Source: Candidatus Latescibacterota bacterium (lineage in GTDB: Bacteria > Latescibacterota > UBA2968 > UBA8231). From it: 64,000 nucleotides of DNA. This document shows, in pieces, positions 19,329 through 44,933 of this stretch. A program made the position numbers and the translations under genes. Under the pieces are notes generated by a model that saw only the letters and a list, made by a program, of their open reading frames with translations, was not told where the DNA came from and made no database searches. The stretch covers positions 320,001 to 384,000 of the forward strand of contig OY730476.1 of the NCBI GenBank assembly GCA_963422735.1, given 5' to 3'. How positions within the stretch are numbered: position 1 is the first letter of the stretch; each line of letters starts with the position of its first letter.

Positions 19329-19377
19329 GCTACTGCGGGGAGGGGCCTAAAATCTTCCAAGCACCGAAAGGACGAGT

Positions 19378-20175
19378 ATGAGCGCCATATCCTTTGAGCA
19401 TATGTTGAGCCGCCAGTACACGGTCTTCGATGGGCTGGGTGGGATGCACGTGGAAGACATCTACCAAGACCGCCAAGGCTTTCTCTGGATCGCCACGGCC
19501 GACGGCGGCGTCAGCCGGTTCGACAGTGTGCGCTTCGATACCTTTAACACCAAAGATGGCCTGCCCAATCTGACGGTGATGGCCATTGCCGAGGAAGCCG
19601 ACGGGCGGCTGCTGTTGGGCACGTTTGGCGGGGGGATCGCCGCCTACGACGGGCGCGGCTTTCAGGTGTACACCACCGAGCACGGCCTGCCTTCCAATGA
19701 GATCGTGAGCCTGCAACCGCAGCCGGATGGCTCGATGCTGGTGCTGACCAACGAGGGGGTAGCGTGGTTTGCCGAGGGGGGCTGTACAAGGAGCATAACC
19801 GATGTTGGCGGCCAACCGTTGGGGCGGGTGTACGATATGGCCACTGACGCGGGCGGCACCACTTGGCTGGCCACGTGGGAGCGAGGCGTTCTCAGCTTGG
19901 ATGGGCGGTGCATGGATACCGGCGACCGGGCGGTGCGATGGCCTTGGAAATTCGCCGAAGGTCCCTCTGGCCACCTGTGGATTGCCTTCCTGTACATGAA
20001 CCCCGAAACCTTTATCGGCCGCTACGATGCGCGAGACGAGCAGTTCGCATTCATCCATGTGGATTGCGAAGCCGAGAGGGCTGCGCAGAATGGGGTGCGG
20101 CATGTGCGGGTTGACGATAGGGGCTGGCTCTGGCTGGCGCGCCGAGGGGTGCTCTGCTACGACGGGCAGGCGTGA
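19378..20175 (+). pseudogene. Truncated copy of the beta-propeller sigma54 activator (N-terminal quarter only)
   Basis: 19329-20151 is nearly identical to 37242-38065, then diverges and stops; no AAA+ or HTH. Confidence 0.9.
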
Positions 20176-20184
20176 CATCATTTT

Positions 20185-21041
20185 TCCGAGGAGATGGCGG
20201 CTTCCCAAGACTATACGCCCCGTCATATTGGCGACTTTACCGGTGATGACGCCGATCTCCGGGAGCGTCCGTGGGGTGAACAGGTGGTTTGTGGGGCCCT
20301 TGGGCGCGGCGTTTCAGAGAGGCGAGATATTTGAATTCGATGAGAGGAAGAAGCCGTTAGGGGTGGGCGATTTTGATGGCGATGGGCAGGTGGATTTCCT
20401 CACCGAATTCGCATCCGCTCAATTAGAAGGTGCTATATGATGATCGGCTATTTCTGCGCTCGTCAGTGCGGGTGCGCGACCTCAACGCCGATGGAGTCGA
20501 GGACTGGGTGTTTATCGGCGGGGATCGCGCCTCGGGCTTTGGGGTGTTTGTCGAATGGGGCGGGAGTGTCAACCCTACTCAAGTAGGGGAGCGGCACCCT
20601 CTGGAGGGCAGTGGGATACACGTGCTGTGTGGGGATATGGATAACGACGGCGATCTCGACTTGGTGGTGTTAGATCCGATATGGGGTGGAGTGCATCTGC
20701 TCAAGAGTTCACTGGCCGAGCAGCCAACGGCGGTGCTGACGCCGGCGGTAGCGCGGCCGGTGCAGCATCGGCTGGGTGAAAGCTATCCCAATCCGTTCAA
20801 TCCGGCGGTGGTGCTGCCCCTTGAGTTGGCAACGGACGCGGCGGGAGTGTCGCTGACGGTGTATGACGTGCTGGGTCGTCGGGTGCGGCGGGTGTGGGAC
20901 GGGTCGCTGGGGGCGGGAACGCATCGGTTTACGTGGGATGGCCGCGACGCGGCGGGCAAGGCGGTGGCTGCGGGTGTGTATATCTATCAGGTCGAAGTGG
21001 ATGGGCAGGTGGAAGCGAAGAAGACGACGAAGCGGCCTTGA
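20185..21041 (+). pseudogene. C-terminal remnant of an FG-GAP/FlgD protein
   Basis: Internally deleted, frameshifted homolog of about 26400-27360 (GDFDGDGQVDFLTEF, YPNPFNP); no N-terminus. Confidence 0.85.
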
Positions 21042-21302
21042 GGGGATGCGTCTATGCGACCGTACGCACTCGTATTGGCCTTTGCTCAACCCCACTTTCA
21101 GCACCGCAGCGGCTTGGCTCTGATGCGGCCGGGGCTGAGGGGGCCGGGTTCTCAGTGCTTCGCGGGGCTTGCGGTCCTGCTCGGCGCACGGGGAGCCGCA
21201 CGCCGACCGGGAGGGCGCGATCCCTAGGAGTAGCTATAGCCTCGCTCCGATGGTATGTAGGCGGCATCGAAGGGGCTATGAAAATGGGTGGGGCCTCGGT
21301 GC

Positions 21303-21370
21303 ATACGGAAAACCGTATCCATCATACGGAAAATCGTATAAAACCGTATCCATCATACGGGAAACCGTAT
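21303..21370 (+). promoter_or_regulatory. Putative enhancer (UAS) for cassette 1: three ATACG-N6-CGTAT palindromes
   Basis: Sites at 21303-21318, 21324-21339 and 21355-21370, upstream of a -24/-12 promoter. Confidence 0.75.
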
Positions 21371-21491
21371 GCTCCCTAGCACCGACGGCTCCGGCACCGA
21401 CGAGTAGAAAGCTTTCTCATACGTTATAAGTATCATGTTTTTCAATCTGTTAGATGCGTCCTGAAGGGTTTTTTGTTCGGATTCTGATCGT

Positions 21492-21507
21492 TGGCATGCC
21501 ACTTGCA
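21492..21507 (+). promoter_or_regulatory. Sigma54 -24/-12 promoter of precursor 1
   Basis: TGGCATGCCACTTGCA (GG-N10-GC); IHF-like TTTCAATCTGTTA at 21440-21452. Confidence 0.85.
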
Positions 21508-21627
21508 TAGCATAACTGTTGAAGGCGCTGCCGATGCCGACGAGGTATCGGTCGTTGCTCAACGCTGACTTCCAGTATGGTATCGGCCCCAGGCTGCGGA
21601 CGTACTGGGCAACGAAGGAGATGGACC

Positions 21628-21906
21628 ATGGACAGTCTTCGGGAATTCTTCACGTCGTCGAGCGGGTTGGCCCCGGCTCGGCAGGGGTTGGGACTCGGGT
21701 GGGTCATCAGCGCTCTTACGGGGGTCGCTATCCTGCTCGGGGCCAAGGAAGCCGAAGCCGGTAGTTGCCCGGGCGAACGGACAGATTGTTCTTGGCATGC
21801 CGGGTGCGCGGAAGTTTATCCGAATGAGCCGTTCCGGTGCTGCACCAAGAAGTTGGACGCCTACTGCGATGTGATTGAAGTAGTAAGTTGCTCCTGTGTG
21901 GCCTAA
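21628..21906 (+). CDS. Cys-rich secreted peptide precursor 1 (92 aa: 44-aa leader, 48-aa 8-Cys core)
   Basis: AAGGAG RBS; MDSLREFFTSSSGLAPARQGLGLGWVISALTGVAILLGAKEAEA-GSCPGERTDCSWHAGCAEVYPNEPFRCCTKKLDAYCDVIEVVSCSCVA; leader shared with 24763 and 40787. Confidence 0.9.
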   Translation: MDSLREFFTSSSGLAPARQGLGLGWVISALTGVAILLGAKEAEAGSCPGERTDCSWHAGCAEVYPNEPFRCCTKKLDAYCDVIEVVSCSCVA

Positions 21907-22062: not shown

Positions 22063-24213
22063 ATGATGTTGCTATGGGCCGTTGTTACAGGTGTTGTGCT
22101 GTGGGGTGGCTCCGCCGAGGCGGTTAGGTGGGATTTCGACGATGGGACAACGCAGGGGTGGTCTGCCAAAGAAGCGCTTATATGGGGTGGGACGCGTGAA
22201 TTGCACCTGTTTCCGGGGGGGGTCGAAGACGGCGTGTGGCGGATCAATGTCGATCCCTCGGTCACCAAGGGTCATTATCTCGCGCCGAGTGTCGAATTGA
22301 TTTCTTCGACCATCGGGTACGATTCAGGTCTATTCGACCAAGTGCGCATCCGGTTCCGCACCGTCCATCACCACCCTACGGTCGGTAATGTTTCAATCGA
22401 GTGGACCAACGAGCACAACGCCCTGTCTTCAGGTTGGGATCCAAAAGATCCGCCGTCTGGAAGCCGGTTTCAAAGCCCCGTACAACCAATCGTTTATACC
22501 ACCGAGTGGCAGGAAGTGGTGCTCTTCTTGGCAGGTCAAGACGAGAAGATATGGCAGGGGCTGTTAAAAGATATTCAGCTAGGTTTTAGACTGGATGAGA
22601 ACAAAACAGGGGCAACTCGGTCGTCTACCGAGGTGGTCGGGTGGTTTGAGATCGACTGGATCGAGTTGACCGGCGTGGAAGAGATGATACAGGGAGAACT
22701 ACCGCCGCCGCACGTAGAGTACTTTCGCTTTGCTGAGGCCAAACTTTTTGCGCCGCCGGTGTTCTATCCGATTGCGCCGGGCATAGGGGAAGACGCTCTA
22801 GGTCTAGATAAGATCGGCGTCTTGGCGGACTTGGATGGCGATGGCGACTTAGACTTTTTCGCCCCCTATAATTACCGTCAACAGGGGCGATGGTGGTCTA
22901 AAACAGGGTGGCTGATGGCCCTCAATGACGGGCAAGGCGTCTTGGAACTAGGGCGTATAGAGGAAGTATCTGCTACAGAGCAGCCTAGTACCGATGCGGC
23001 AACTGGAACGACGACCGTCTCCGGGGTGATCATAGAGGTGATTGGTGCTGATTTGACCGGCGATGGTAAAGACGAAATCGCGATATCTGCAAGCAACAGT
23101 GGGCAAGTGACAGAAGTTTGGTCTGTGGGGCCGGAACTCCAAGTCGAGGTGCTCGTGCAGATAGAGGATCGATGGATCCGAGATGTGGCGGATTGGGATG
23201 GCGACGGCCGGGTCGAACTATTTGTAGGGGATATTACGTTTGAAGGAAGCACGTTAGAGGTCTGGGATGTCGAGCAGGGGGTGTGGGCCGCCGATGAGAT
23301 TGCGACTGCCAAAAACCATGCGCCCGCTCAGATTGGCGACTTTATCGGCGATGGGGCATTAGACGTGTTGTGGCTACCGATCGCTGGGCGAGTGAATACG
23401 TGGATTGTGCAGGCCTTGAGCGAGGAGTTTCAGAGAGGCGAGATATTTGAATTCGATGAGAGGAAAGGGCTGTTAGGGATGGGCGATTTTGATGGCGATG
23501 GACAGGTGGATTTCCTCACCGAATTCGCACTTGATCGAATCGAAGGTAGGAAGGGACTGGTTTTGCAGAGGAAGCGCGCCGGAGATCGCTTAGCAGCCGA
23601 GGTGCTCTACGATGATCGGCTGTTTCTGCGCTCGTCAGTGCGGGTGCGCGACCTCAACGCCGATGGAGTCGAGGACTGGGTATTTATCGGCGGGGATCGC
23701 GCCTCGGGCTTTGGGGTGTTTGTCGAATGGGGCGGGAGCGTCAACCCTACTCAAGCAGGGGAGCGGCATCGTCTGGAGGGCAGTGGGCGATACGTGCTGT
23801 GTGGGGATATGGATAACGACGGCGATCTCGACTTGGTGGTGTTAGATCCGATATGGGGTGGAGTGCATCTGCTCAAGAGTTCACTGGCCGAGCAGCCAAC
23901 GGCGGTGCTGACGCCGGCGGTAGCGCGACCGGTGCAGCATCGGCTGGGCGACAGCTATCCCAATCCGTTCAATCCGGCGGTGGTGCTGCCCCTTGAGTTG
24001 GCAACGGACGCGGCGGGAGTGTCGCTGACGGTGTATGACGTGTTGGGTCGTCGGGTGCGGCGGGTGTGGGACGGGTCGCTGGGGTCGGGAACGCATCGGT
24101 TTACGTGGGATGGCCGCGACGCGGCGGGCAAGGCGGTGGCCGCCGGGGTGTATATCTATCAGGTCGAAATCGACGGGCAGGTGGAAGCGAAGAAGACGAC
24201 GAAGCGGCCTTGA
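22063..24213 (+). CDS. Secreted FG-GAP/VCBS-repeat protein with C-terminal FlgD-Ig/T9SS-like domain, cassette 1
   Basis: Signal peptide (AEA), WDFDDGTTQGW domain, repeated D-x-D-G-D-G motifs, YPNPFNP..WDGRD..GVYIY. Confidence 0.9.
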   Translation: MMLLWAVVTGVVLWGGSAEAVRWDFDDGTTQGWSAKEALIWGGTRELHLFPGGVEDGVWRINVDPSVTKGHYLAPSVELISSTIGYDSGLFDQVRIRFRTVHHHPTVGNVSIEWTNEHNALSSGWDPKDPPSGSRFQSPVQPIVYTTEWQEVVLFLAGQDEKIWQGLLKDIQLGFRLDENKTGATRSSTEVVGWFEIDWIELTGVEEMIQGELPPPHVEYFRFAEAKLFAPPVFYPIAPGIGEDALGLDKIGVLADLDGDGDLDFFAPYNYRQQGRWWSKTGWLMALNDGQGVLELGRIEEVSATEQPSTDAATGTTTVSGVIIEVIGADLTGDGKDEIAISASNSGQVTEVWSVGPELQVEVLVQIEDRWIRDVADWDGDGRVELFVGDITFEGSTLEVWDVEQGVWAADEIATAKNHAPAQIGDFIGDGALDVLWLPIAGRVNTWIVQALSEEFQRGEIFEFDERKGLLGMGDFDGDGQVDFLTEFALDRIEGRKGLVLQRKRAGDRLAAEVLYDDRLFLRSSVRVRDLNADGVEDWVFIGGDRASGFGVFVEWGGSVNPTQAGERHRLEGSGRYVLCGDMDNDGDLDLVVLDPIWGGVHLLKSSLAEQPTAVLTPAVARPVQHRLGDSYPNPFNPAVVLPLELATDAAGVSLTVYDVLGRRVRRVWDGSLGSGTHRFTWDGRDAAGKAVAAGVYIYQVEIDGQVEAKKTTKRP

Positions 24214-24463: not shown

Positions 24464-24500
24464 ATACGGAAAACCGTATCCATCATACGGAAAATCGTAT
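24464..24500 (+). promoter_or_regulatory. Putative enhancer (UAS) for cassette 2: two ATACG-N6-CGTAT palindromes
   Basis: 24464-24479 and 24485-24500, 21 bp apart. Confidence 0.75.
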
Positions 24501-24621: not shown

Positions 24622-24637
24622 TGGCACGCCATTTGCA
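24622..24637 (+). promoter_or_regulatory. Sigma54 -24/-12 promoter of precursor 2 and probably of the maturation operon
   Basis: TGGCACGCCATTTGCA, an exact match to TGGCACG-N4-TTGCW; IHF-like site at 24570-24582. Confidence 0.9.
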
Positions 24638-24762: not shown

Positions 24763-25044
24763 ATGGACAGTCTTCGGGAATTCTTCACGTCGTCGAGCGG
24801 GTTGGCCCCGGCTCGGCAGGGGTTGGGACTCGGGTGGGTCATCAGTGCTCTTACGGGGGTCGCTATCCTGCTCGGGGCGAAAGGAGCTGCAGCCGATTGC
24901 GACAAAAGAAAGTGGACAAGGGACTTCGGGTACAGCGCAGGTTGCGACGAGGCCACGAAAGGGGCAGCGGCGAAGATGTGTCAGGACTGTTGGCTGGACT
25001 CGAAATGCAAAACAAGGTGCGGGGGGAACTACTGCTGCGCTTGA
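24763..25044 (+). CDS. Cys-rich secreted peptide precursor 2 (93 aa; 49-aa 8-Cys core)
   Basis: Same leader ending AKGAAA, core DCDKRKWTRDFGYSAGCDEATKGAAAKMCQDCWLDSKCKTRCGGNYCCA; AAGGAG RBS. Confidence 0.9.
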   Translation: MDSLREFFTSSSGLAPARQGLGLGWVISALTGVAILLGAKGAAADCDKRKWTRDFGYSAGCDEATKGAAAKMCQDCWLDSKCKTRCGGNYCCA

Positions 25045-25200: not shown

Positions 25201-27360
25201 ATGCTGAAATTTGTCGCTGTTGCATGGGTTGTGCTGGGCAGTAGCCTCGCCGAGGCGGTTAGGTGGGATTTCGACGATGGGACGACGCAAGGGTGGACCG
25301 CCAAAGAAGCGCTTATATGGGGTGGTACGCGTGAATTTAACCAGTTTCTGGGGGGGGTCGAAGACGGCGTGTGGCGGATCCGGATTGATCCGGCCGCTAC
25401 CAAGAGTTTGCACACCTCCAGGTCGGGTGTCGAAGTGATTTCTTCGGCGATCGGGTATGATTCGGACCTGTTCGATCAAGTCCGCATCCGGTTCCGCACC
25501 GTCCATGACCGTCCTACGGAAGGTACTTTTTCTATCGCGTGGGAAAACGCTTCCGATTTTAATCTGGATGCTGAATATGAAGCGTTAACGTCTTTTATAC
25601 ATCTCGCCCAGCAAATAGTCTATACCACCGAGTGGCAGGAATTGGTGGTATCCTTGGCGGGTCAAGCCGGATGGCAGGGCCTGTTAGAAAATATTCAGCT
25701 AAGTTTCATATCTTTTGAAGTGGTCGAGTCGTTTGAGATTGACTGGATCGAGTTGACCGGCGTGGAAGAGATGATACAGGGAGAACGGCCGCCGCCGCCC
25801 GTAGAGTACTACTTTCGCTTTGCGGGGGCCGGCCTTTTTGCGCCGCCGGTGTTCTATCCGATTGCGCCGGGCATAGGGGAAGCACCTATTGGAGGAAGGT
25901 ATCTAGGGGATAAGGTATGGGGCAACGTGTTGACGGACTTGGATGGCGATGGCGACTTAGACCTGTTCGGCCTCTGGAAAACGCGAACGGAAATACCACA
26001 TGGGTATGAGGATAAAGCGGGCTGGCTGATGGCTGTCAATGACGGGCGAGGGGCCTTGGAACGTGGGCCTGTTATAGAAGAAGTAATGGCTGCAGGTTGG
26101 GTGGTCTTAAAGATGCTGAGTGCTGATTTGACCGGCGATGGTAAGGACGAAATCGCGATATCACGAAGCAACCGGGAACCCTCGACCGAAGTGTGGTCTA
26201 TCGGGCCGGAACTCCAAATCGAGGTGCTCGTGCAGTTCGATAGCGGGCTCCATAATGTGGCGGATTGGGATGGCGACGGCCGGGTTGAGTTATTTACGGG
26301 GGGGGCTATGTTTGAAGGCTCTTTAGAGGAAGTGATCGCGGGTACGGCGAAGTTTTCAAGCAGGTTAGCGGTCTGGGAGGTCGAACAGGGCGTGTGGACT
26401 TCCGAGGAAGTGGCGGCTTCCCAAGACTATACGCCCTCTCATATCGGCGACTTTACTGGCGATGGGACCCTCGATGTGTTTTGGGTGCCGATCGCCGGGG
26501 AAGCCCGTGGGATGAACAGGTGGATTGTGGGAGCCTTGGGCGAGGAGCATCAGAAAGGAGAGATATTTGAATTCGATGAACGGAAGGGGCCGTTAGGGGT
26601 GGGCGATTTTGATGGTGATGGGCAGGTGGATTTCCTCACCGAGTTCACATCCCCTCAATTCAAAGATGGCATAGAAAGAATTAGCATAGAAGGTAGTAAG
26701 GGGATCGTCTTGCAGAGAAAGGGAGCCGGGGATCGCCTCGAAGCGGAGGTGCTGTATGATGATCGGCTGTTTCGGCGCTCGCCGGTGATGGTGCGCGACC
26801 TCAACGCCGATGGAGTCGAGGACTGGGTGTTTATCGGCGGGGATCGCGCCTCGGGCTTTGGGGTGTTTGTCGAATGGGGCGGGAGCGTCAACCCTACTCA
26901 AGCAGGGGAGCGGCATCGTCTGGAGGGCAGTGGGCGATACGTGCTGTGTGGGGATATGGATAACGACGGCGATCTCGACTTGGTGGTGTTAGATCCGATA
27001 TGGGGTGGGGTGCATCTGCTTGAGAGTTCACTGGCCGAGCAGCCAACGGCGGTGCTGACGCCGGCGGTAGCGCGACCGGTGCAACATCGGCTGGGCGACA
27101 GCTATCCCAATCCGTTCAATCCGGCGGTGGTGCTGCCCCTTGAGTTGGCAACGGACGCGGCGGGAGTGTCGCTGACGGTGTATGACGTGTTGGGTCGTCG
27201 GGTGCGGCGGGTGTGGGACGGGCCGCTGGGGTCGGGAACGCATCGGTTTACGTGGGATGGCCGCGACGCGGCGGGCAAGGCGGTGGCTGCCGGGGTGTAT
27301 ATCTATCAGGTCGAAATCGACGGACAGATAGAAGCCAAGAAGACGACCAAGCTACCGTAA
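25201..27360 (+). CDS. Secreted FG-GAP/VCBS-repeat protein with FlgD-Ig/T9SS-like domain, cassette 2
   Basis: ATG 25201 after GGAGGT; paralog of 22063..24213. Confidence 0.9.
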   Translation: MLKFVAVAWVVLGSSLAEAVRWDFDDGTTQGWTAKEALIWGGTREFNQFLGGVEDGVWRIRIDPAATKSLHTSRSGVEVISSAIGYDSDLFDQVRIRFRTVHDRPTEGTFSIAWENASDFNLDAEYEALTSFIHLAQQIVYTTEWQELVVSLAGQAGWQGLLENIQLSFISFEVVESFEIDWIELTGVEEMIQGERPPPPVEYYFRFAGAGLFAPPVFYPIAPGIGEAPIGGRYLGDKVWGNVLTDLDGDGDLDLFGLWKTRTEIPHGYEDKAGWLMAVNDGRGALERGPVIEEVMAAGWVVLKMLSADLTGDGKDEIAISRSNREPSTEVWSIGPELQIEVLVQFDSGLHNVADWDGDGRVELFTGGAMFEGSLEEVIAGTAKFSSRLAVWEVEQGVWTSEEVAASQDYTPSHIGDFTGDGTLDVFWVPIAGEARGMNRWIVGALGEEHQKGEIFEFDERKGPLGVGDFDGDGQVDFLTEFTSPQFKDGIERISIEGSKGIVLQRKGAGDRLEAEVLYDDRLFRRSPVMVRDLNADGVEDWVFIGGDRASGFGVFVEWGGSVNPTQAGERHRLEGSGRYVLCGDMDNDGDLDLVVLDPIWGGVHLLESSLAEQPTAVLTPAVARPVQHRLGDSYPNPFNPAVVLPLELATDAAGVSLTVYDVLGRRVRRVWDGPLGSGTHRFTWDGRDAAGKAVAAGVYIYQVEIDGQIEAKKTTKLP

Positions 27361-27956: not shown

Positions 27957-27969
27957 GGAGTATTGGGCT

Positions 27970-33943: not shown

Positions 33944-34195
33944 GGGAGCTGACGTTACGCAGTGCTTTGTCGCGGACGAACCAGTCCATCAGGTGGTCCC
34001 CCGCCGGTGGCCCCCGCTGGATGTCACGCCTAAAGGCGCGGTGAAGCCTGCTTCCGCAGGAAGGATCCTCGCCCGGACCGAGGTTCGAGCCCAAGGCTCG
34101 TCATTCCCTCGAAAGTGGGGAGGCAGCGGGGGGAGGCAGGGCGAAACCACGCCTTGGGCGGTAAACTGCGTAACGCCAGTAAGGGAGCGAGCTCA

Positions 34196-35239: not shown

Positions 35240-35242
35240 GGC

Positions 35243-37291: not shown

Positions 37292-40200
37292 ATGAGCGCC
37301 ATATCCTTTGAGCATATGTTGAGCCGCCAGTACACGGTCTTCGATGGGCTGGGTGGGATGCACGTGGAAGACATCTACCAAGACCGCCAAGGCTTTCTCT
37401 GGATCGCCACGGCCGACGGTGGCGTCAGCCGGTTCGACAGTGTGCGCTTCGATACCTTTAACACCAAAGATGGCCTGCCCAATCTGACGGTGATGGCCAT
37501 TGCCGAGGAAGCCGACGGGCGGCTGCTGTTGGGCACGTTTGGCGGGGGGATCGCCGCCTACGACGGGCGCGGCTTTCAGGTGTACACCACCGAGCACGGC
37601 CTGCCTTCCAATGAGATCGTGAGCCTGCAACCGCAGCCGGATGGCTCGATGCTGGTGCTGACCAACGAGGGGGTAGCGTGGTTTGCCGAGGGGGGCTGTA
37701 CAAGGAGCATAACCGATGTTGGCGGCCAACCGTTGGGGCGGGTGTACGATATGGCCACTGACGCGGGCGGCACCACTTGGCTGGCCACGTGGGAGCGAGG
37801 TGTTCTCAGCTTGGATGGGCGGTGCATGGATACCGGCGACCGGGCGGTGCGATGGCCTTGGAAATTCGCCGAAGGTCCCTCTGGCCACCTGTGGATTGCC
37901 TTCCTGTACATGAACCCCGAAACCTTTATCGGCCGCTACGATGCGCGAGACGAGCAGTTCGCATTCATCCATGTGGATTGCGAAGCCGAGAGGGCTGCGC
38001 AGAATGGGGTGCGGCATGTGCGGGTTGACGATAGGGGCTGGCTCTGGCTGGCGCGCCGAGGGGTGGTGGTACACACAGGTCAAGAGTGGCAGCAGGTTTC
38101 CGCCTCCCTGCCCGATATTGACTTTTCGGGTACGCGCCTGACGTACGAGGACCGCGAGGGCAATATATGGATCGGGCTTTGGGGCGGCGGGCTAATTTTT
38201 TGCGATCCGGCCAGCGTCCGGCTCTACACCGAAGCCAACGGCCTGCCGGACCGCGAGGTTCGCCACTTAGGCGAAGATTCTAAGGGGCGGATGTGGATCG
38301 GCACGATGGGGGGCATGGCCTGCATGGAAGAGGGGCAAATCCGTCCGCTCGATCAGTTTGAAACCGTTTCGGCGATGATGGTGGATAGCGCGGGGCAGGT
38401 CTGGAGCGGCGGGGACACCGGCCGGGTGTACAAGTGGGAAGGCCAGACGCCGCGAGCGATCGCCGTGGATGAAGAAATCCACTCCGAAAAAATCACCGGG
38501 CTGTGCCAAGACGGGCAAGGGCGTATATGGATTGGCACGTTCCGCGGCCACTTCGGCTGGGTAGAAGCCCATCGCTTCACCCTCCTCGACGAGTGGGAAG
38601 GCGATGAATGCCGCGCCCTGCTGCGAAACCAAAACGGGGTATTCTGGATTGGTTTCTTCGGCAGAGTCCCGGCACTTTACTGGTACGAGGACGGTCATTT
38701 TCGCCCGGTGAAGATGGACGAGTTGGAGACGATCGTCTATGTCAATGTCTTGTGGGAGCACCAAAATGTCTTGTGGATCGGCACGGCTAAGGGGCTTTTC
38801 GCGCTCGACCACTCGTCGGGGCAGGTGCGCCACTTTACGACCGATCAGTTTGAGCGGTCGGCCAATGGCGTCTTGGCACTGGCGGCCGACCGCCAGGGCC
38901 ATATTTGGATTGGGACCAGTGGTGGGGGTGTGCTGCGCTACGACGGCGAGACCTTCCAAAGCATCCGCTTAGGGCCGTCTGCTCTCGTAAACATAGTCGA
39001 GGCTATTCTATGCGACCGCGATGGCCGGCTGTGGTTTGGGACGCGGGCCGGCTTGGTCGCCTACCAGCCCGGCGACACGCCGCCGCGCTTGGTGATCCGC
39101 GAGGTGATGGCCGGCACCCTCTTAGATGCGCCTGAAGCCGTCTCCTGCTCAGAGAGCATTCCCGAAATCCGCATCCACTTCCAAGGCATCAGCTTCCGCA
39201 CCGGCGTACAGCAGATGCGCTATCGCCACCGCTTGGTAGGCTACGGCCCGGCCGAACCGTGGAGCGCGTTCACCGCCGTCGATGCGGTGGTGTACACCGC
39301 CTTGCCGGTGGGCGACTACCGCTTTGAGGTGCAGACCATAGACCAAGATGGCCTGAAGTCCGAGGTGATCGGCTTGGACGTCCACATCCTCCCCGGCATC
39401 CAAACTGAACGCTTCCGCGCTTTCGGAAAGGCCCTGCGGGCGATCGAGTCTGTTGTGCCGAGCCGCAGTCGGGCCATGCAACAGGTGATGAAAAAAGTCT
39501 CGCAGGTCGCCGGGACCGATATGACCGTGCTGGTGCTGGGCGAGACCGGCACGGGCAAGGGGGTGCTCGCGCAGACCCTCCACGACACAAGCCGCCGCCA
39601 CGGGCATCCCTTTATCCAAGTCAATTGCGGGGCACTGCCCCCCGGGTTGGTCGAGAGCGAGTTGTTCGGCCACGAGAAAGGGGCCTTTACCGGCGCAAAC
39701 ACCCGCCAGATCGGGCGCTTTGAACTGGCCGATGGCGGCACACTCTTTCTGGACGAAATCGGCGATTTGCCGTTGGAATCTCAGCGGGTGCTGCTGCATA
39801 TCTTAGAGGAGAATACCCTGACCCGCGTCGGTGGCGAGCAGTCTGTGCGGGTGGATGTGCGGGTGATTGCGGCGACCAACCTCGACCTACAGCAGGCTAT
39901 CGAGGAGGGCACGTTCCGCAAAGACCTGTTTTATCGTCTGGAGGTCTTCGCGCTTGAGCTTCCGTCGCTGCGGCAGCGGTGCGAGGATATACCGGCTTTA
40001 GCCGCGCATTTTGTGGAGTGGTATGCCCAAGACCTCAAGCGGCCGGTGCCGACGATAGACGACGGGGTGGTCGCGCATTTGCAGGCGTACTCTTGGCCGG
40101 GGAATGTGCGCGAACTGGAGCACGTGATCCACCGGGCGGTCTTGCTGTGCGAGGGTGGTGTGATAGGGGTGGAGGAGGTGGCGTTGCCGGCTGAAGACGA

Positions 40201-40438
40201 GGAGGGGGACGAAAGCCAGTCGCCCCCGCCGGCTGAACGACAAACCGGGGATGCGGCCGAAGAGACGCCGCTTGTCGAAGGCATGGACGAAAAGCAGCAG
40301 ATTGTGGAGGCCCTGCAAGCGACCAATTGGATGATCTACGGCGAGCGCGGCGCGGCCAAACTGTTGGATATGAACCCGGAGAAACTGCGTTCCCGCATGC
40401 GCGTGTACGGGTTGCGGCGACCGAAAAAGTCGTCTTAA
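37292..40438 (+). CDS. Sigma54 enhancer-binding protein with N-terminal two-component-regulator beta-propeller and Y_Y_Y domains
   Basis: Many D..G.LWI(G/A)T..G repeats, YRHRLVG..VYTALPVGDYRFEVQ, GETGTGKG, GAFTGA, FLDEIGD, WPGNVRELEH, C-terminal HTH. Confidence 0.9.
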   Translation: MSAISFEHMLSRQYTVFDGLGGMHVEDIYQDRQGFLWIATADGGVSRFDSVRFDTFNTKDGLPNLTVMAIAEEADGRLLLGTFGGGIAAYDGRGFQVYTTEHGLPSNEIVSLQPQPDGSMLVLTNEGVAWFAEGGCTRSITDVGGQPLGRVYDMATDAGGTTWLATWERGVLSLDGRCMDTGDRAVRWPWKFAEGPSGHLWIAFLYMNPETFIGRYDARDEQFAFIHVDCEAERAAQNGVRHVRVDDRGWLWLARRGVVVHTGQEWQQVSASLPDIDFSGTRLTYEDREGNIWIGLWGGGLIFCDPASVRLYTEANGLPDREVRHLGEDSKGRMWIGTMGGMACMEEGQIRPLDQFETVSAMMVDSAGQVWSGGDTGRVYKWEGQTPRAIAVDEEIHSEKITGLCQDGQGRIWIGTFRGHFGWVEAHRFTLLDEWEGDECRALLRNQNGVFWIGFFGRVPALYWYEDGHFRPVKMDELETIVYVNVLWEHQNVLWIGTAKGLFALDHSSGQVRHFTTDQFERSANGVLALAADRQGHIWIGTSGGGVLRYDGETFQSIRLGPSALVNIVEAILCDRDGRLWFGTRAGLVAYQPGDTPPRLVIREVMAGTLLDAPEAVSCSESIPEIRIHFQGISFRTGVQQMRYRHRLVGYGPAEPWSAFTAVDAVVYTALPVGDYRFEVQTIDQDGLKSEVIGLDVHILPGIQTERFRAFGKALRAIESVVPSRSRAMQQVMKKVSQVAGTDMTVLVLGETGTGKGVLAQTLHDTSRRHGHPFIQVNCGALPPGLVESELFGHEKGAFTGANTRQIGRFELADGGTLFLDEIGDLPLESQRVLLHILEENTLTRVGGEQSVRVDVRVIAATNLDLQQAIEEGTFRKDLFYRLEVFALELPSLRQRCEDIPALAAHFVEWYAQDLKRPVPTIDDGVVAHLQAYSWPGNVRELEHVIHRAVLLCEGGVIGVEEVALPAEDEEGDESQSPPPAERQTGDAAEETPLVEGMDEKQQIVEALQATNWMIYGERGAAKLLDMNPEKLRSRMRVYGLRRPKKSS

Positions 40439-40620: not shown

Positions 40621-40636
40621 GGGCACGGAATGTGCA
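40621..40636 (+). promoter_or_regulatory. Sigma54 -24/-12 promoter of precursor 3
   Basis: GGGCACGGAATGTGCA (GG-N10-GC); IHF-like CTTCAACGCTTTA at 40570-40582, at nearly the same distance as in cassettes 1 and 2. Confidence 0.75.
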
Positions 40637-40786: not shown

Positions 40787-41059
40787 ATGAACACGTTGCG
40801 GGAGTTTTTCACGTCGTCGAGCGGGTTGGTGCCGGCTCGGCAGGGGCTGTCGCTGGGGTGGGTCATCAGTGCCCTCGTAGGGGTCGCCATTCTGGTCGGG
40901 GCAGAGGAAGCTGAAGCCCAAGATTGTCCGTCTACTTCGTTTGATTGCGAATACATGTATCCCACACACTGCACGAAATATTTTCCGACCCGGTGCTGCG
41001 TGATTAAGCTGGACCATAATTGCAGGAGCACTCTAGAATATTGTTTCTGCACCCCCTAA
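40787..41059 (+). CDS. Cys-rich secreted peptide precursor 3 (90 aa; 46-aa 8-Cys core)
   Basis: GAGGAGGT RBS; MNTLREFFTSSSGLVPARQGLSLGWVISALVGVAILVGAEEAEA-QDCPSTSFDCEYMYPTHCTKYFPTRCCVIKLDHNCRSTLEYCFCTP. Confidence 0.9.
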   Translation: MNTLREFFTSSSGLVPARQGLSLGWVISALVGVAILVGAEEAEAQDCPSTSFDCEYMYPTHCTKYFPTRCCVIKLDHNCRSTLEYCFCTP

Positions 41060-41201: not shown

Positions 41202-43343
41202 ATGATGTTGCTATTGACCGTTGTTGCAGGCGTCGTGCTATTGGGCAGTTCCGCCGTGGCGATCAAGTGGGATTTCGACGACGGGACAACGCAAGGGTGG
41301 TCCGCCAAGGAAGCTCTTACATGGGGGGGTACGCGTGAATTGTATCTGTTGCCGGGGGTGGTCGAAGACGGTGTGTGGAGAATCACGGTCGATCCCTATG
41401 TCACCAAAAGCCATTATAGTTCGGCGAGTATTTTCGTGAGTTCTTCTGCCGAATTGATTTCTCCTACTATAGGGTACGATTCGGATCTGTTCGACCATGT
41501 CCGCATCCGGTTCCGCACCGTCCATGACCTCCCTACGGTCGGTAGTTTTTCGATCTCTTGGACCAACGAGCACAACGCTAGGTTGGATATAGAAGATTTT
41601 TCTGAGGACCAGTTTGTCCTCCCCCTCCAATCCATAGTCTATACCACCGAGTGGCAGGAAGTGGTGATCGCCTTGGGGCATCAAGACGAGACGATATGGG
41701 AAGGTCTGTTAAAAGATATTCAGCTAAGTTTTGTACTGGATAGAGCGGACGCCCCTCTGTTGGGCGAGCTAGTCAAGTGGTTTGAGATCGACTGGATCGA
41801 GTTGACCGGTGTGGAAGAGCAATTACAGGGGGAATTAGCCCCTCCTTACGTGGACTATTTTCGCTGGGATGAGGCTGGCGTTTTTGCCCCGCCGGTGTTC
41901 TATCCGATTGCGTCGGGCATAGGAAAAGGTCAACTAGGACAGGCCGGCAGCGTGTTGACGGACTTGGATGGCGATGGCGACACAGACCTGTTGGCTGTCT
42001 GGCGGTACCATCAGAGGAGGTCTCCTACGACGGGCTGGCTGATGGCTGTCAATGACGGGCAAGGGGCCTTGGAACTGAGGCGCATAGAGGAGGTAGTTTC
42101 CACAGGGCAGCCTAGTACCGATGCAGCATCTGGCATCACAACCATCTCATTGGTGAGCGCAGAGGTGCTAGGTGCTGATTTGACGGGCGATGGGCAAGAC
42201 GAAATCGCGATATCTATAAGCAATAATAATAGTCTCGTAACAGAGGTTTGGTCTATCGATCCGGAACTCCAAGTCGAGGTGCTGGTGCAGATTAAAGATA
42301 GATGGCTCAGGAATGTGGCGGATTGGGATGGTGATGGCCGGGTCGAATTATTTGTAGGGAAGACTACGTTTGAGGGAAGCATTTTAGAGGTCTGGGATGT
42401 AGCACAGGGCGTGTGGACCGCCGAGGAGGTAGGTGTGGCCGAAAGGCATTCGCCCGACACCATCGGCGACTTTACCGGCGATGGCGCACTCGACGTGTTG
42501 TGGCTCCCGATCGCTGATCTGGTGAACACGTGGATTATGAGTCCCTTGGGCGAGGATCTGCAAAGAGGCGAGGTATTTGAATTCGATGAGTGGAAGCAGT
42601 TATTGGGGGTGGGCGATTTTGATGGCAATGGTCAGGTGGATTTTCTCACGGAGTTCTTCTTTGATGGAATGGAAGGCAGCAAGGGGCTGGCCTTGCAGCA
42701 AAAGAGCACCGGGGATCGCGTAGAAGCGGCGGTGCTGTATGATGAGCGACTGTTTCGCGGTTCGCCAGTGGAGATACGCGACCTCAACGCCGATGGGGTA
42801 GAAGACTGGGTGTTTATCGGTGGAGACCGCGCCTCGGGCTTTGGGGTGTTTGTCGAATGGGGCGGCAGTGTCCGTCCTACCCAAGCCGGGGAGCGGCATC
42901 GGCTGGAGGGCAGGGCGACCACCGTGCTGTCGGGGGATATGGATGGGGACGGCGATGTGGACTTGGTGGTGTTGGATCCGATCTTGGGTGGGGTGCATGT
43001 GCTCAAGAGTTCGTTGGGCGAGCAGGCGACCGCGGTACTGACGACCGCAGCCGTGCGGCCGGCGCAGTATCGGCTGGGCGACAGCTATCCGAATCCATTC
43101 AATCCCCAAGTGGTGATTCCCCTCGATTTGGCGACAGACGCGGCGGGGGTGTCGCTGCGGGTGTACGATGTGTTGGGTCAGCAGGTGCGGCAGTTATGGG
43201 ACGGGCCGCTGGCGGCGGGTAGCCATCGGTTTGTGTGGAATGGCCGCGACGAGGAGGGTAAGGAAGTGGCCGCTGGCGTGTATATCTATAAGGTTGAGAT
43301 GGATGGACAGATACAAGCGAGGAAGACGACGAGACTGCCGTGA
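41202..43343 (+). CDS. Secreted FG-GAP/VCBS-repeat protein with FlgD-Ig/T9SS-like domain, cassette 3
   Basis: Full-length paralog of 22063 and 25201; AAGGAG RBS. Confidence 0.9.
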   Translation: MMLLLTVVAGVVLLGSSAVAIKWDFDDGTTQGWSAKEALTWGGTRELYLLPGVVEDGVWRITVDPYVTKSHYSSASIFVSSSAELISPTIGYDSDLFDHVRIRFRTVHDLPTVGSFSISWTNEHNARLDIEDFSEDQFVLPLQSIVYTTEWQEVVIALGHQDETIWEGLLKDIQLSFVLDRADAPLLGELVKWFEIDWIELTGVEEQLQGELAPPYVDYFRWDEAGVFAPPVFYPIASGIGKGQLGQAGSVLTDLDGDGDTDLLAVWRYHQRRSPTTGWLMAVNDGQGALELRRIEEVVSTGQPSTDAASGITTISLVSAEVLGADLTGDGQDEIAISISNNNSLVTEVWSIDPELQVEVLVQIKDRWLRNVADWDGDGRVELFVGKTTFEGSILEVWDVAQGVWTAEEVGVAERHSPDTIGDFTGDGALDVLWLPIADLVNTWIMSPLGEDLQRGEVFEFDEWKQLLGVGDFDGNGQVDFLTEFFFDGMEGSKGLALQQKSTGDRVEAAVLYDERLFRGSPVEIRDLNADGVEDWVFIGGDRASGFGVFVEWGGSVRPTQAGERHRLEGRATTVLSGDMDGDGDVDLVVLDPILGGVHVLKSSLGEQATAVLTTAAVRPAQYRLGDSYPNPFNPQVVIPLDLATDAAGVSLRVYDVLGQQVRQLWDGPLAAGSHRFVWNGRDEEGKEVAAGVYIYKVEMDGQIQARKTTRLP

Positions 43344-43345
43344 GT

Positions 43346-43477
43346 TCAGCGAGTGCGGTTGCCCAAGCTTATCAGATCGGGGGCGTGCCGCAGTTTTACG
43401 TGGTGAGCGAGGAGGGGACCATCGCTTCTTTTGCGCGAGGGATGCCTCCGGTGTGGGAAGCCGTGCAAAAGCTATAA
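43346..43477 (+). pseudogene. 3' remnant of the TlpA-like gene
   Basis: Homologous to 30096-30227 (AVAQAYQIGGVPQFYVV..GMPPVWEAVQKL-stop). Confidence 0.9.
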
Positions 43478-43499
43478 CCGGGGAGGACCTACTATTGCC

Positions 43500-43586
43500 T
43501 TTCACGAAACGCATCAGGCTATCTCGAGCGGCGAAATGGCAGAGCGTACATTAATGCTCGATCTTCATCCCTTGAGAGGGGCATAA
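43500..43586 (+). pseudogene. 3' remnant of the GT2 gene
   Basis: Homologous to 35153-35239 (FHETHQ..MAERTLMLDLHPLRGA-stop). Confidence 0.9.
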
Positions 43587-43589
43587 GGC

Positions 43590-44933
43590 ATGAGACGGCC
43601 ATGGAAGGTTCCGCTGCAAAAAGATAGAAGACTGCAAAGTTGCTTGGCGCTGTCGCTGGCCTTGCATCTGCTGGCGATGTTTGGCGTCGCGCACCGCGAG
43701 CGGGTTACTCAATTCCCTGTCCTCCCGCCGATCATGGTGAAGTTTACCAAACGGCCACCGCCGCAGCGCACCCTCACCCGTCGCCAACGGCCCCACCAAC
43801 GGCCCTTGGTGCGCCGCCCGGCCCTGCAAGCGGCCCCGGTCGAGGCCGTGCGGCCGGCTCCCTCGGCGGTGCGCCCGCTGCCGGTGTTCCAGACCTCGGC
43901 TCCCCGGCTGTCGACGGCTTCGCTGCCGGATCGGGTGGTGTTGCCCGTGCCGGATTTTCCGGCTCGGCACATTGGCCCGCACCTGCGGGTTGGGGCGTTG
44001 GAAGGGACGCGGCAGGGCGCGGACGAGATTGACTTGGGCTTGGAGATGATGGATGTGCAGGCGCTGGACACGGGGCGGCACCGGGCGATGGTCGTGGTCG
44101 ATCCCAAAGATCGGCGCAACCTCAAGGGGTTCCTCTATATGTCCGGCCTCTACAGCCCTTCTATTGAACGGGCTGAAGAGAGTGAACAGGCCGAAAACAA
44201 GCAAGTGCGCTGGTATCACCAGATGCCGCGCCAAATGGTGGAACGGCGGATGCTGCAAGGATTGGCCGATAAGATGACTGCCAGTACGCAGGTCCACGTC
44301 GGAGTGCGCGACGCAGTCGCCCTTGACGACCCGCAGCTTTTGCAGGTCCCCTTCGTGCTGCTAACTGTCAATACCCCCTTTGAGTTTACGGACAGCGAGG
44401 CGGCCAATCTAGGGGCGTATTTGACCGGCGGCGGCTTCCTGTTTGTGGATATTGTCCGCATGTTGTGGAACAATTATAGAGACGACGAATTAGACATTCC
44501 CTCGGTGCGTTCCCTCATTCGCGCCAGCTTCCAAGCGGCAGGCTATCAAGAATGGAAGGATTGGCAGTTTAGCCGCCTAGAGCTAACCCATCCGCTCTAT
44601 CATTGCTTCTACGATGTAAACAGCCTGCCGCGCGGGATGCGCGATATGCACTTTATAGTGGGCAAACAAGATACGCCACTAACCCCGGACTACTTGGAGG
44701 GCATAATGGTAGGGGAGCATTTGGCCGGGGCGTATTCGATGCGTGGGTACGCTGATTTCTGGGCGGGTATCGGTTGGGAGAACCTCGATTGGGCTTTGAT
44801 GAATGGCGTAAGCAACAGCGCGTTTCTCGCCAGTGCCGAAGAGCCGTTGGTGTATAGTTTGGGCATCAATATCGTGGTGTACGCGTTGACGCGCGAGGGA
44901 TCACTGGCACGGCAATTGGTCACCGCGGACTAA
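43590..44933 (+). CDS. DUF4159-domain protein (copy 2)
   Basis: N-terminal ~190 aa identical to 35243..36583; patchy divergence in the C-terminal domain. Confidence 0.8.
   Translation: MRRPWKVPLQKDRRLQSCLALSLALHLLAMFGVAHRERVTQFPVLPPIMVKFTKRPPPQRTLTRRQRPHQRPLVRRPALQAAPVEAVRPAPSAVRPLPVFQTSAPRLSTASLPDRVVLPVPDFPARHIGPHLRVGALEGTRQGADEIDLGLEMMDVQALDTGRHRAMVVVDPKDRRNLKGFLYMSGLYSPSIERAEESEQAENKQVRWYHQMPRQMVERRMLQGLADKMTASTQVHVGVRDAVALDDPQLLQVPFVLLTVNTPFEFTDSEAANLGAYLTGGGFLFVDIVRMLWNNYRDDELDIPSVRSLIRASFQAAGYQEWKDWQFSRLELTHPLYHCFYDVNSLPRGMRDMHFIVGKQDTPLTPDYLEGIMVGEHLAGAYSMRGYADFWAGIGWENLDWALMNGVSNSAFLASAEEPLVYSLGINIVVYALTREGSLARQLVTAD

Follow-up and report, generated by a model that had tools for sequence, protein, structure and literature searches.

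What is a prepilin-type peptidase doing in the middle of a cluster of genes for small, cysteine-rich peptides? The question is raised by a 64,000-nt stretch of DNA from Candidatus Latescibacterota bacterium (GenBank assembly GCA_963422735.1, contig OY730476.1, positions 320,001 to 384,000 of the forward strand; hereafter the window), the genome of which (G000) is a single 4.95-Mb contig, 95% complete. In the window, three precursor genes (pep1, pep2 and pep3) that share a leader and differ in their cores accompany an operon for an A24-family peptidase (A24), a flavin mononucleotide (FMN)-binding CxxC protein (FMNlike), two TlpA-like thiol-disulfide oxidoreductases (Tlp1 and Tlp2) and several further proteins. 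We consider it rather probable that these genes constitute a lineage-specific maturation system for secreted, disulfide-rich mini-proteins. The analysis is entirely computational, drawing on sequence, predicted models and co-occurrence, and what the computation shows is the family of peptides, how the genes are linked, which folds and motifs their products have, and that alternative machinery is missing.

The leader peptide family

The initial annotation of this DNA, made from the sequence alone, had singled out three small open reading frames (ORFs) with a common 44-residue leader and cores of eight cysteines, and this description holds. The first 44 residues of pep1, pep2 and pep3 align without a gap (MDSLREFFTSSSGLAPARQGLGLGWVISALTGVAILLGAKEAEA, with few changes between the copies; counted on the alignment, pep2 is identical to pep1 at 42 of the 44 residues and pep3 at 37), and the 46-49 residues that follow are divergent and contain exactly 8 Cys in each peptide. 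The DNA of pep1 and pep2 shares a 95% identical tract (21340-21760 versus 24470-24895) that spans the promoter region and the leader and ends precisely at codon 44. A conserved leader followed by a variable core is what is expected of the precursor of a ribosomally synthesized and post-translationally modified peptide (RiPP), and the pep family has both.

The shared leader and eight-cysteine pattern are not a chance resemblance, because a word-indexed search returned 159 protein clusters at E<=0.01, none of which carries a name or a Pfam domain; among the 120 clusters listed, 8 Cys are found in 89, 6 in 14 and 10 in 7. A profile of the leader only (A6, an alignment of 16 diverse leaders) matched 141 representatives at E<=1e-3 among 1.84 billion proteins. 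Of the 136 that were inspected, 110 carry 6 or more Cys behind the leader, with exactly 8 in 55; the remaining matches mostly look truncated, and the repeat protein P0236 is probably a false match. The conserved leader with a hypervariable cysteine-rich core is therefore real and defines a large family, as had been proposed. All 17 genome loci found with the leader (L006-L022) belong to metagenome-assembled genome records of Candidatus Latescibacterota (Latescibacteria), and the family is confined to this phylum. The window peptides themselves match no NCBIfam or Pfam family even at E<=10.

The A6 leaders follow the consensus F-x-x-S-[ES]-S-G-x-x-x-P-[RK]-x-[GA], after which come [LIF]-x-x-x-[WF], a run of hydrophobic residues and AxA, with G13 invariant and W25 nearly so. 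The hypervariable core has about 35-55 residues, mostly 8 Cys, and no conserved Ser/Thr/Cys position beyond its cysteine framework. Longer relatives (250-330 aa) combine the same leader with two or three tandem cysteine modules and a C-terminal domain (CTD) of the T9SS (type IX secretion system) type, as in the FG-GAP proteins described below. A single genome (G130) can hold as many as 21 leader matches, and the modules of peptide and FG-GAP genes occur as tandem arrays, with gene-conversion tracts and decayed copies.

Linkage to the peptidase and the oxidoreductases across the phylum

Within the genus of the window the order of genes, with some shuffling, is activator, (peptide, FG-GAP)n, FMNlike, A24, Tlp1, Tlp2, tetratricopeptide repeat (TPR) protein, a fusion of a GT1-family glycosyltransferase with a transglutaminase-like domain (GT1-TGase), a GT2 glycosyltransferase and a DUF4159 protein. 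Ten more distant loci (L023-L032), the A24 proteins of which are 27-40% identical to that of the window, conserve A24 and TlpA-like genes, with FMNlike in eight (not in L025 and L031), and a leader-bearing cysteine-rich ORF adjoins them in all ten. A24 is flanked by FMNlike and two Tlp genes in L023, L024, L026-L030, L032 and L033. Loci L030-L032 had been picked on A24 alone, after the first leader profile missed their genomes, and in all three a peptide gene was found beside A24.

In a survey of 168 Candidatus Latescibacterota genomes, A24 was found in 31, the leader (A6) in 40 (37 of these at E<=1e-8) and FMNlike in 28; every one of the 31 A24-positive genomes was also leader-positive and 24 genomes had all three markers, counts that overstate the support because related genomes are not independent. 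The A24 matches that cover about 270 of the 385 query residues or more number 46; 41 of them are accompanied on the same contig by a leader match within 5 kb, and 18 by one within 1 kb. Of the five A24 genes with no near leader, three sit on short contigs from fragmented assemblies and the other two are copies in G102. The adjacency of A24 and leader persists through changed gene order and deep divergence. By these comparisons the conserved core is the leader peptide, the FlaK-like A24, the TlpA-like oxidoreductases and, usually, FMNlike. The initial annotation had named a wider circle of leader partners: its A24 and thiol-redox genes are indeed linked to the leader, whereas its glycosyltransferase, transglutaminase, TPR and DUF4159 genes are so only within one family (f1).

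The genome of the window holds a second, decayed system of a divergent type (L029, G000:C1:1708594-1716400), in which nothing but the C-terminal third is left of the A24 gene, and which further contains FMNlike, a pair of Tlp genes, a leader peptide of about 6 Cys, FG-GAP fragments, a GT1-TGase fragment and a frameshifted DUF4159 gene. Intact versions of this type are present in G138 (L028) and in L033.

A FlaK-like aspartyl peptidase

A24 scores 30.0 bits against Pfam PF01478 (cut-off 26.5; 32 bits in the whole-genome search), and D33 together with the W89-G92-D93-K95 motif (FWGxGDAKL, which reads FWGAGDAKL in the window) is invariant in 13 homologues, down to 26% identity. We take D33 and D93, by analogy, to be the two catalytic aspartates expected of GxGD proteases. 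An exhaustive structural comparison (VIA-align) placed FlaK (3s0x_B) at the top, with Z 12.6 and a root-mean-square deviation of 3.4 A over 160 residues, the next Z being 6.3. The C-terminal part is a borderline Arc_PepC match (22.7 bits, cut-off 23.4), and the Atlas cluster nearest to A24 likewise consists of archaeal Peptidase_A24 plus Arc_PepC. Neither the single A24 sequence nor the A24 profile matched any of the sequences of solved structures. Judged by its conserved residues, A24 is a competent GxGD protease.

The genome contains a single full-length A24 gene. It gave no match to the T2SSE/PilB-family ATPase (PF00437), for which a control search matched in 13 of 14 genomes. Since no assembly ATPase for pilins, pseudopilins or archaellins was matched in the genome, the leader peptides are the only visible substrates of A24, and the peptidase and redox genes look dedicated to the cysteine-rich peptides. 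By analogy with class III substrates, the cut by A24 would fall after the conserved G/A at position 20, just ahead of the hydrophobic helix.

A flavin- and thioredoxin-type redox arm

FMNlike has an N-terminal anchor and carries two sequences, RHDIxCxxCxD and DG[ILV][TS]GAT, that are invariant in 12 homologues, and its G169-A170-T171, likewise invariant in these, agrees with the [S/T]GA[S/T] flavinylation motif. RnfG and NqrC are covalent-FMN subunits, and all top Foldseek matches of the FMNlike model, which has a predicted local distance difference test (pLDDT) score of 83, are to RnfG/NqrC (7zc6_G: E 6.4e-5, probability 1.0). The FMNlike profile gave chance-level matches only (E 0.1) against the sequences of solved structures, and no curated family was found either for this flavoprotein or for the peptides. 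The flavin transferase ApbE is encoded once in the genome (275 bits), and in two genomes of another family its gene lies directly upstream of the FMNlike homologue (L027, 253 bits; L030, 255 bits). The equivalent place in L026 is taken by a GT4 glycosyltransferase. FMNlike occurs in the genome of the window only at the two leader loci.

Tlp2 matches AhpC-TSA with 65.5 bits (cut-off 26) and has a CPYC site, and Tlp1 combines a ResA match at E 7e-10 with a CDAC site. Proteins of the Tlp1 type have C-x-A-C in 17 of 18 covered matches, and those of the Tlp2 type C-P-[YH]-C in 14 of 23, a figure affected by imperfect binning. In L026 (6817-8769) the Tlp2 homologue seems to be interrupted by an ORF of 439 aa (7115-8434), which may be an insertion element. 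Pfam searches of the genome gave no match for DsbB, VKOR or DSBA and one match for DsbD_TM. Because DsbA, DsbB and VKOR were unmatched, and because of the fold and motifs of FMNlike and the linkage of the genes, we propose that Tlp1, Tlp2 and the flavoprotein form a dedicated disulfide relay.

FG-GAP partners and the type IX secretion system

As the initial annotation had noted, an FG-GAP/FlgD gene stands downstream of each peptide gene. The three encoded proteins (713-720 aa) have an ordinary signal peptide, an N-terminal domain without a known family, FG-GAP repeats and a FlgD_ig/CTD region, and the CTD of the first, FGGAP1, matches the T9SS type A sorting domain TIGR04183 at 31.5 bits (cut-off 23). 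The genome encodes a T9SS (PorU at 632 bits, cut-off 420; SprA is present), and the CTD region has matches in some 50 further open frames. It is because the FG-GAP partners are T9SS cargo that the export or surface display envisaged for the peptides is plausible.

At the loci of the same genus an FG-GAP gene follows 27 of 29 short leader genes. The distances between peptide cores correlate with those that the adjacent FG-GAP proteins show in their N-terminal 60%, with a Mantel r of 0.74 that none of 2000 permutations attained, in a test on 23 of the 27 pairs, from which three had been dropped because their ORF start could not be trimmed by the motif and one because of a truncated leader. Peptide and FG-GAP pairs are inherited as units; by itself, the Mantel correlation is no sign of binding. 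A model of the complex between the pep1 core (residues 45-92) and FGGAP1 (residues 21-630) scored 0.65, versus 0.23 for the best of three controls; 58 of 80 solved complexes and 2 of 110 mismatched pairs attain that mark, a calibration that is approximate, custom alignments having been used. Three model runs agree in at least 75% of contacts, with a partner pLDDT of at least 70, and in the model nearly the whole peptide touches the N-terminal domain and loops from one propeller blade after another. The model thus supports binding of pep1 to FGGAP1. The fused proteins with leader, cysteine modules and CTD show, by their domain make-up, that cysteine modules can themselves be directed to the T9SS, and the modelled complex leads us to suggest that the short peptides are exported while attached to their propeller.

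Genera without FG-GAP partners have a secreted protein of about 300 aa and no Pfam family that adjoins peptide or A24 genes and has the N-terminal motif IYPF-ELTD...DGS-DW...GEP-LTA-DF. It may be an alternative partner of the peptides there.

Accessory enzymes of a single family

The TPR, GT1-TGase, GT2 and DUF4159 genes had no match in seven other-genus loci (L023-L027, L030-L032), and as far as the survey reaches they are accessories restricted to family f1. The GT1-TGase fusion, the glycosyltransferase part of which resembles the GT1 enzymes YjiC, CalG2 and OleD, is confined to f1 (33 of 168 genomes) and is multi-copy, and 11 of these genomes have no leader or A24 match. Both types of system in the genus of the window have a GT1-TGase copy nearby. 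Further paralogues at about 40% identity are present in the genome of the window (G000:C1:394086-396533, 410788-413244 and 1932607-1935026), two of them 10-29 kb past its right end. The initial annotation had suggested glycosylated or cross-linked products. With the glycosyltransferase and transglutaminase genes outside the conserved core, neither glycosylation nor isopeptide cross-linking has any positive evidence, and it is only in f1 that the operon contains GT2 and GT1-TGase, the candidates for enzymes that would modify the core. If the peptides undergo only leader removal and disulfide formation, they would not be RiPPs in the strict sense.

Sigma54-type motifs

A sigma54 promoter had been assigned to each peptide gene, and a -24/-12 motif was indeed found 136-166 nt upstream of each of the three starts. 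Over the whole window a loose sigma54 motif was found 6 times versus 5.2 expected, i.e. with no enrichment above chance. The strict motif lies at -136 to -166 in 11 of 38 leader genes (window and L006-L022) and occurs 17 times in the 398 kb of + strand; the other 27 leader genes do not have it, several of them being second genes of tandem arrays. From this pattern only the position of the motif upstream of leader genes is informative, and that position is specific. In 11 of 17 related loci the gene that immediately precedes a leader gene is that of the activator.

A proposed mechanism and its alternatives

What follows is a proposal, since we deduce the cleavage, the flavinylation, the chemistry of the disulfides, the binding and the biological role from the features described above. 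The precursor, made up of a conserved cytoplasmic N-region, one hydrophobic helix ending in AxA and a hypervariable core, would insert in the inner membrane with its N-terminus in the cytoplasm. The FlaK-like A24 would recognise the N-region and cut where the helix meets the cytoplasm, near G20/L21, much as a class III peptidase does, and the AxA site may free the core into the periplasm. Tlp1 and Tlp2 would then form and shuffle the four disulfides of the core, with FMNlike, flavinylated by ApbE, linking the Tlp proteins to an electron sink or source in place of DsbA, DsbB and VKOR. In the genus of the window the folded peptide would bind the top face of its own, co-diversifying FG-GAP propeller and, the propeller being T9SS cargo, the two would be exported or displayed together. 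The adjacent activator would drive expression from the sigma54 promoters. The most likely role for the product, in our judgement, is that of a polymorphic extracellular ligand, a bacteriocin-like or adhesion/recognition module.

Apart from the relatedness of the genomes counted, several observations weigh against this proposal. For the peptidase, the mean pLDDT of the AlphaFold model of A24 is only 65 and a Foldseek search with it gave no match at E<=0.001. The AxA after the helix would let signal peptidase I free the core, so that the need for A24 is only proposed, and the proposed cut site departs from the class III canon, the basic residue being mostly at -3 and not -2, with a nearly invariant W, or F, and not Glu at +5. 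For the redox arm, FMNlike scores 16.4 bits against the Pfam family FMN_bind (PF04205; cut-off 22), E 0.014 and in the motif region only, and Tlp1 stays below its Pfam cut-off (23 versus 26). Seven A24-positive genomes, including all five A24-positive genomes of genus g18, have no FMNlike, and the flavoprotein is dispensable in some lineages. Six of the nine A24-negative genomes with a leader match (the other three being marginal) have a strong leader and no A24 match at 1e-10, namely G120, G134, G137, G141, G088 and G091; G137, at L011, has lost the block from A24 to DUF4159 while one peptide gene and FG-GAP genes are still open. Lastly, joint duplication of linked genes can alone give the correlation between peptide and propeller, and the complex is a predicted model of one cognate pair.

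Among the alternatives to a disulfide-based maturation system, the product could be a true RiPP, the leader guiding cytoplasmic GT2, GT1-TGase and a TPR scaffold in glycosylating or cross-linking the core before export, followed by leader removal by A24 or by the transglutaminase-like domain. Genus g1 does pack TPR, GT1-TGase, GT2 and DUF4159 into the same operon with gaps of 3-21 nt, and the second, divergent type of system has its own GT1-TGase paralogue, at about 40% identity, a few kb from its A24 (examples are G139, G133, G144, G125, G140, G138, G145 and G127). The kinship of the GT-B part to natural-product GT1 enzymes also fits, as does the company of a radical-SAM maturase kept by distant A24 homologues (see below), by which the leader/A24 module can serve RiPP-type chemistry. 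We nevertheless regard a true RiPP as unlikely. The enzymes are unmatched in the other-genus loci that retain leader, A24 and Tlp (and FMNlike save for L025 and L031), the fusion exists in f1 genomes that have no leader or A24 match, and L014 is a core cassette plus DUF4159 without TPR, GT1-TGase or GT2. A precursor with a Sec-type helix and AxA would, moreover, go out unfolded, with no dedicated ABC/C39 exporter, and the core lacks a conserved Ser/Thr/Cys position outside the cysteine framework. A different proposal is about what the peptides do and leaves the maturation chemistry as it stands: they might be polymorphic toxins or bacteriocins for which the FG-GAP protein or a MacB/FtsX-type permease is the carrier, exporter or immunity protein. 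Hypervariable cores behind a conserved leader, up to 21 of them in G130, the arrays, conversion tracts and decayed copies of the modules, the co-diversification and predicted tight binding of peptide and partner, the MacB_PCD/FtsX permease that follows the peptide genes in L026, L027 and L030 and the MacB-HlyD-HlyD-ABC cluster bordering the cluster in the window all speak for it. We still hold it to be improbable, as no toxin or immunity family was matched among the scanned proteins and the FG-GAP partner bears an export signal of its own, which is unusual for an immunity protein. The MacB/HlyD cluster may encode an exporter or an immunity pump; its synteny extends to only 3 of the 17 loci L006-L022 (L012, L017 and L022), and its exporter was for this reason set aside as a lead and not counted as part of the system.

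That the peptides are ordinary Sec-secreted products lying by coincidence beside A24, Tlp and FMN genes with an unrelated envelope function seems to us very improbable. It would account for the standard AxA signal-peptidase motif at the end of the leader, for the peptide genes that G137 keeps without the cassette and for peptide/FG-GAP modules far from any cassette, e.g. in L012 and L019; it fits poorly with adjacency kept across A24 proteins that are 26-33% identical and differently ordered genes, with the restriction of FMNlike to the two leader loci of the genome, with a leader N-region far more conserved than a signal peptide requires, and with the lack of any other candidate A24 substrate system in the genome. 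Mini-pilins, that is, A24-cut peptides that retain their helix and assemble into type IV-like filaments bearing a disulfide-knotted head, are suggested by hallmarks of pilins: an A24 peptidase, a stretch of about 20 hydrophobic residues behind a G/A, and a C-terminal part that is small and globular and contains cysteine. No assembly ATPase or platform protein was found among the window proteins matched in related loci, the residue at +5 is not E, the AxA suggests that the helix is removed, and the fused forms carry a T9SS CTD. With no T2SSE-family assembly ATPase matched in the genome, we rejected the pilus reading, which can scarcely be credited. A maturation system for secreted, disulfide-rich mini-proteins is thus the reading that we retain. 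The more ambitious joint claim, in which a filament-free A24 serves as the dedicated peptidase for a new class of leader, in a module common with the His-Xaa-Ser (Hxs) system, alongside a covalently flavinylated CxxC/TlpA disulfide machine that stands in for DsbA/DsbB/VKOR and T9SS-exported, propeller-locked ligands, is one that we put forward tentatively and would sooner doubt than assert.

Relation to known systems

A24 peptidases of class III (prepilin-type) signal peptides include PilD, FlaK, PibD and EppA. The system of the window resembles theirs in having a GxGD peptidase with both Asp, closest relatives of archaeal type and an Arc_PepC-like domain, and its leader, like a class III substrate, has a short polar N-region that ends in G/A and directly precedes about 20 hydrophobic residues in A6. 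The substrates here are, however, cysteine-rich mini-proteins and not pilins, in a genome with no type IV filament ATPase match, and the leader differs in the residue at +5, in the AxA site after its helix and in the length of its N-region (about 20 aa), which carries an S-x-S-G...P-R-x-G motif of its own.

The glycocin sublancin is made by a set consisting of the precursor SunA, the GT2 SunS, the thiol-disulfide oxidoreductases BdbA and BdbB and the C39-ABC exporter SunT. Here, too, a small cysteine-rich peptide with a leader occurs in a cluster with a GT2 and thiol-disulfide oxidoreductases. Unlike that of a glycocin, the leader has no double-glycine, has a transmembrane helix and is paired with A24, and GT2 is missing from most lineages that have the leader/A24 system. 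The initial annotation had pointed out the lack of a C39-ABC exporter, and we agree: no C39 domain was found among the proteins scanned, the one ABC system close by is of the MacB type, and the leader ends in a membrane helix and AxA. Disulfides in exported proteins are made by DsbA/DsbB, VKOR and the Erv/QSOX flavin sulfhydryl oxidases. The proposed relay resembles these in that a thioredoxin-fold protein would pass electrons to a redox cofactor protein, and differs from them in the fold of FMNlike, which is of the RnfG/NqrC covalent-FMN type and not an Erv fold or a quinone reductase. As with T9SS type A cargo, the FG-GAP partners and the fused cysteine-module proteins carry a CTD; the short peptides do not, and their ride on the propeller is suggested by the modelled complex.

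Bioinformatic work has pointed to hybrid systems that combine thioredoxin-like proteins with flavinylation (Meheust et al. 2021, PMC8238504). FMNlike is akin to the ApbE-flavinylated proteins of that work in being membrane-anchored, with an [S/T]GA[S/T]-type motif, thioredoxin-like neighbours and, in two loci, an adjacent ApbE gene. The clusters described in the portions of that article considered here pair DsbD, DUF3570 and DUF4266, or P19/FTR1, and A24, cysteine-rich precursors and a CxxC within the FMN-binding protein are absent from that text, the supplementary cluster tables of which might list the type.

A metagenome scan with the A24 profile returned few loci, 15. Three low-GC metagenome contigs (L035-L037) have full-length A24 homologues at 22-25% identity. 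Behind each of these lie HxsD-like genes, a gene for the radical-SAM maturase HxsB (460 bits against TIGR03978, cut-off 370) and a small ORF with a weak HxsA3 match (32.8 bits, cut-off 65). The leader of the HxsA3-like ORF and that of the Latescibacterota peptides align in register (hhalign probability 60%, E 8.5e-5), and in L037 the ORF with the leader runs on into Hint/intein-type domains. As a lead, these alignments suggest that the pair of leader and A24 may be a module common to chemically different peptide-maturation systems. The window differs from the Hxs system (HxsA-D; TIGR03976/TIGR03978/NF038309) in having no radical-SAM gene and no HxS repeats, and its maturation chemistry is proposed to be thiol/disulfide- and flavin-based. 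None of HxsB/HxsC, HxsD or an HxS-repeat precursor was found among the window proteins scanned, and the window peptides do not match NF038309 even at E<=10. The E. coli HXS has been described as an anti-phage system with an effector, HxsA, that arrives in the periplasm once its N-terminus has been processed in a non-canonical way, and the word peptidase does not occur in that paper (PMC13128918).

The initial annotation had not recognised this combination of genes, and the literature searches found no published description of a leader peptide with A24 and flavin/thioredoxin genes; among the NCBIfam and Pfam models there is none for the peptides. The pairing of peptide and propeller, the fused forms with leader, cysteine modules and CTD, the missing type IV filament and Dsb matches and the link to Hxs go beyond what that annotation had seen.

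Layout of the cluster

The operon (27366-36583) is placed between the second and third peptide/FG-GAP modules (Table 1), and the family and fold matches bear out the gene content first assigned to it. The tight packing ascribed to it is true of most junctions, with gaps of 3-21 nt or overlaps, and not of the 171-252 nt ahead of the GT2 gene. Self-comparison of the window DNA shows the cluster to be a mosaic of repeated modules. At its left edge, 19328-20151 is 99.6% identical in nucleotides to the 5' part of the activator gene (37242-38065), and 20428-21339 repeats, at 96% identity, the 3' end of an FG-GAP gene with its spacer (23600-24500). The FG-GAP fragment there is probably a pseudogene piece, and 19328-21339 looks like a recombination scar made of such pieces. 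Just upstream of DUF4159b, 43346-43492 is a 90% copy of the final ~148 nt of the Tlp2 gene (30096-30243), which suggests that this module derives from a Tlp2-DUF4159 arrangement such as that of L014. Behind 24260, in the spacer between FGGAP1 and pep2, contigs of the public runs X1 and X6 have an 11-nt insertion; they also differ at a few single bases, a sign of strain variation. The gene that comes after the cluster (45245-46900) codes for a protein that has an F5/8 type C (discoidin) domain and a FlgD_ig CTD, a probable further T9SS cargo; it is syntenic, following DUF4159 in L018 and an FG-GAP gene in L011.

Table 1. Features of the cluster and of related loci; positions are those of the window unless a locus is named.
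Feature	Position	Strand	Remarks
MacB_PCD/FtsX permease, two HlyD-type adaptors, ABC ATPase	13954-19108	-	just left of the cluster
Sigma54 activator 5' fragment, 265 aa (N-terminal part)	19378..20175	+	nucleotide identity and translation
FG-GAP gene fragment (C-terminal third: FG-GAP repeats and CTD)	20430..21041	+	nucleotide identity and translation
Sigma54-type -24/-12 motif TGGCATGCCACTTGCA	21492..21507	+	136 nt upstream of pep1
pep1, 92-aa precursor: 44-aa leader and 8-Cys core	21628..21906	+	
FGGAP1, predicted binding partner of pep1	22063..24213	+	signal peptide, N-domain, FG-GAP/VCBS propeller, FlgD_ig/T9SS type A sorting domain
Sigma54-type -24/-12 motif TGGCACGCCATTTGCA	24622..24637	+	141 nt upstream of pep2
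pep2, 93-aa precursor: same leader, different 8-Cys core	24763..25044	+	
FGGAP2, FGGAP1 paralogue	25201..27360	+	ATG 25201 inside ORF opening at 25123
FMNlike, membrane-anchored RnfG/NqrC-like FMN-binding CxxC protein	27366..27956	+	
A24, FlaK-like GxGD aspartyl peptidase with Arc_PepC-like domain; proposed leader peptidase	27970..29127	+	
Tlp1, membrane-anchored TlpA/ResA-like thiol-disulfide oxidoreductase, CDAC site	29146..29700	+	
Tlp2, membrane-anchored TlpA/ResA-like thiol-disulfide oxidoreductase, CPYC site	29697..30227	+	
TPR protein, accessory	30249..31454	+	by eye without signal peptide
GT1-family GT-B glycosyltransferase fused to transglutaminase-like core (Transglut_core), accessory	31463..33943	+	
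GT2 glycosyltransferase, accessory	34115..35239	+	likely ATG 34196
DUF4159a, accessory	35243..36583	+	N-terminal membrane anchor, Pro/Arg-rich linker, DUF4159 domain
Sigma54 activator	37292..40438	+	Reg_prop propeller, Y_Y_Y and AAA+ Sigma54_activat
Sigma54-type -24/-12 motif GGGCACGGAATGTGCA	40621..40636	+	166 nt upstream of pep3
pep3, 90-aa precursor: same leader, third 8-Cys core	40787..41059	+	
FGGAP3, cognate FG-GAP/T9SS-CTD partner of pep3	41202..43343	+	
DUF4159b	43590..44933	+	copy of DUF4159a at 94% nucleotide identity
ApbE flavin transferase gene	L027:11820-12944; L030:11373-12464	-	upstream of FMN-binding CxxC gene
MacB/FtsX-type permease	L026:11235-13562; L027:4155-6650; L030:5245-7575		after peptide genes
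Secreted ~300-aa protein	L024:8145-9119; L031:5769-6776; L032:9772-10662 and 10700-11692		
A24-Hxs loci	L035:3391-6809; L036:3386-6925; L037:1113-5507		

Implications

Leader-guided maturation of secreted peptides is a known kind of process, and it is the parts found here that are new to that role. If the proposal is true, A24/GxGD peptidases gain a job outside pili, archaella and type II secretion, and the leader is a new and readily searchable class that marks hundreds of unexplored cysteine-rich peptides, a source of compact disulfide-rich scaffolds. The link to Hxs suggests that leader and peptidase form a general export-and-processing device for periplasmic or secreted peptide effectors. 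The flavin-linked thioredoxin relay would be a candidate route to multi-disulfide proteins in a diderm without detectable DsbA, DsbB or VKOR. For this uncultured phylum, the co-diversifying pairs of peptide and propeller would represent a new two-part polymorphic surface or secreted module, and the propeller-locked polymorphic peptide ligands may serve as a recognition or competition code.

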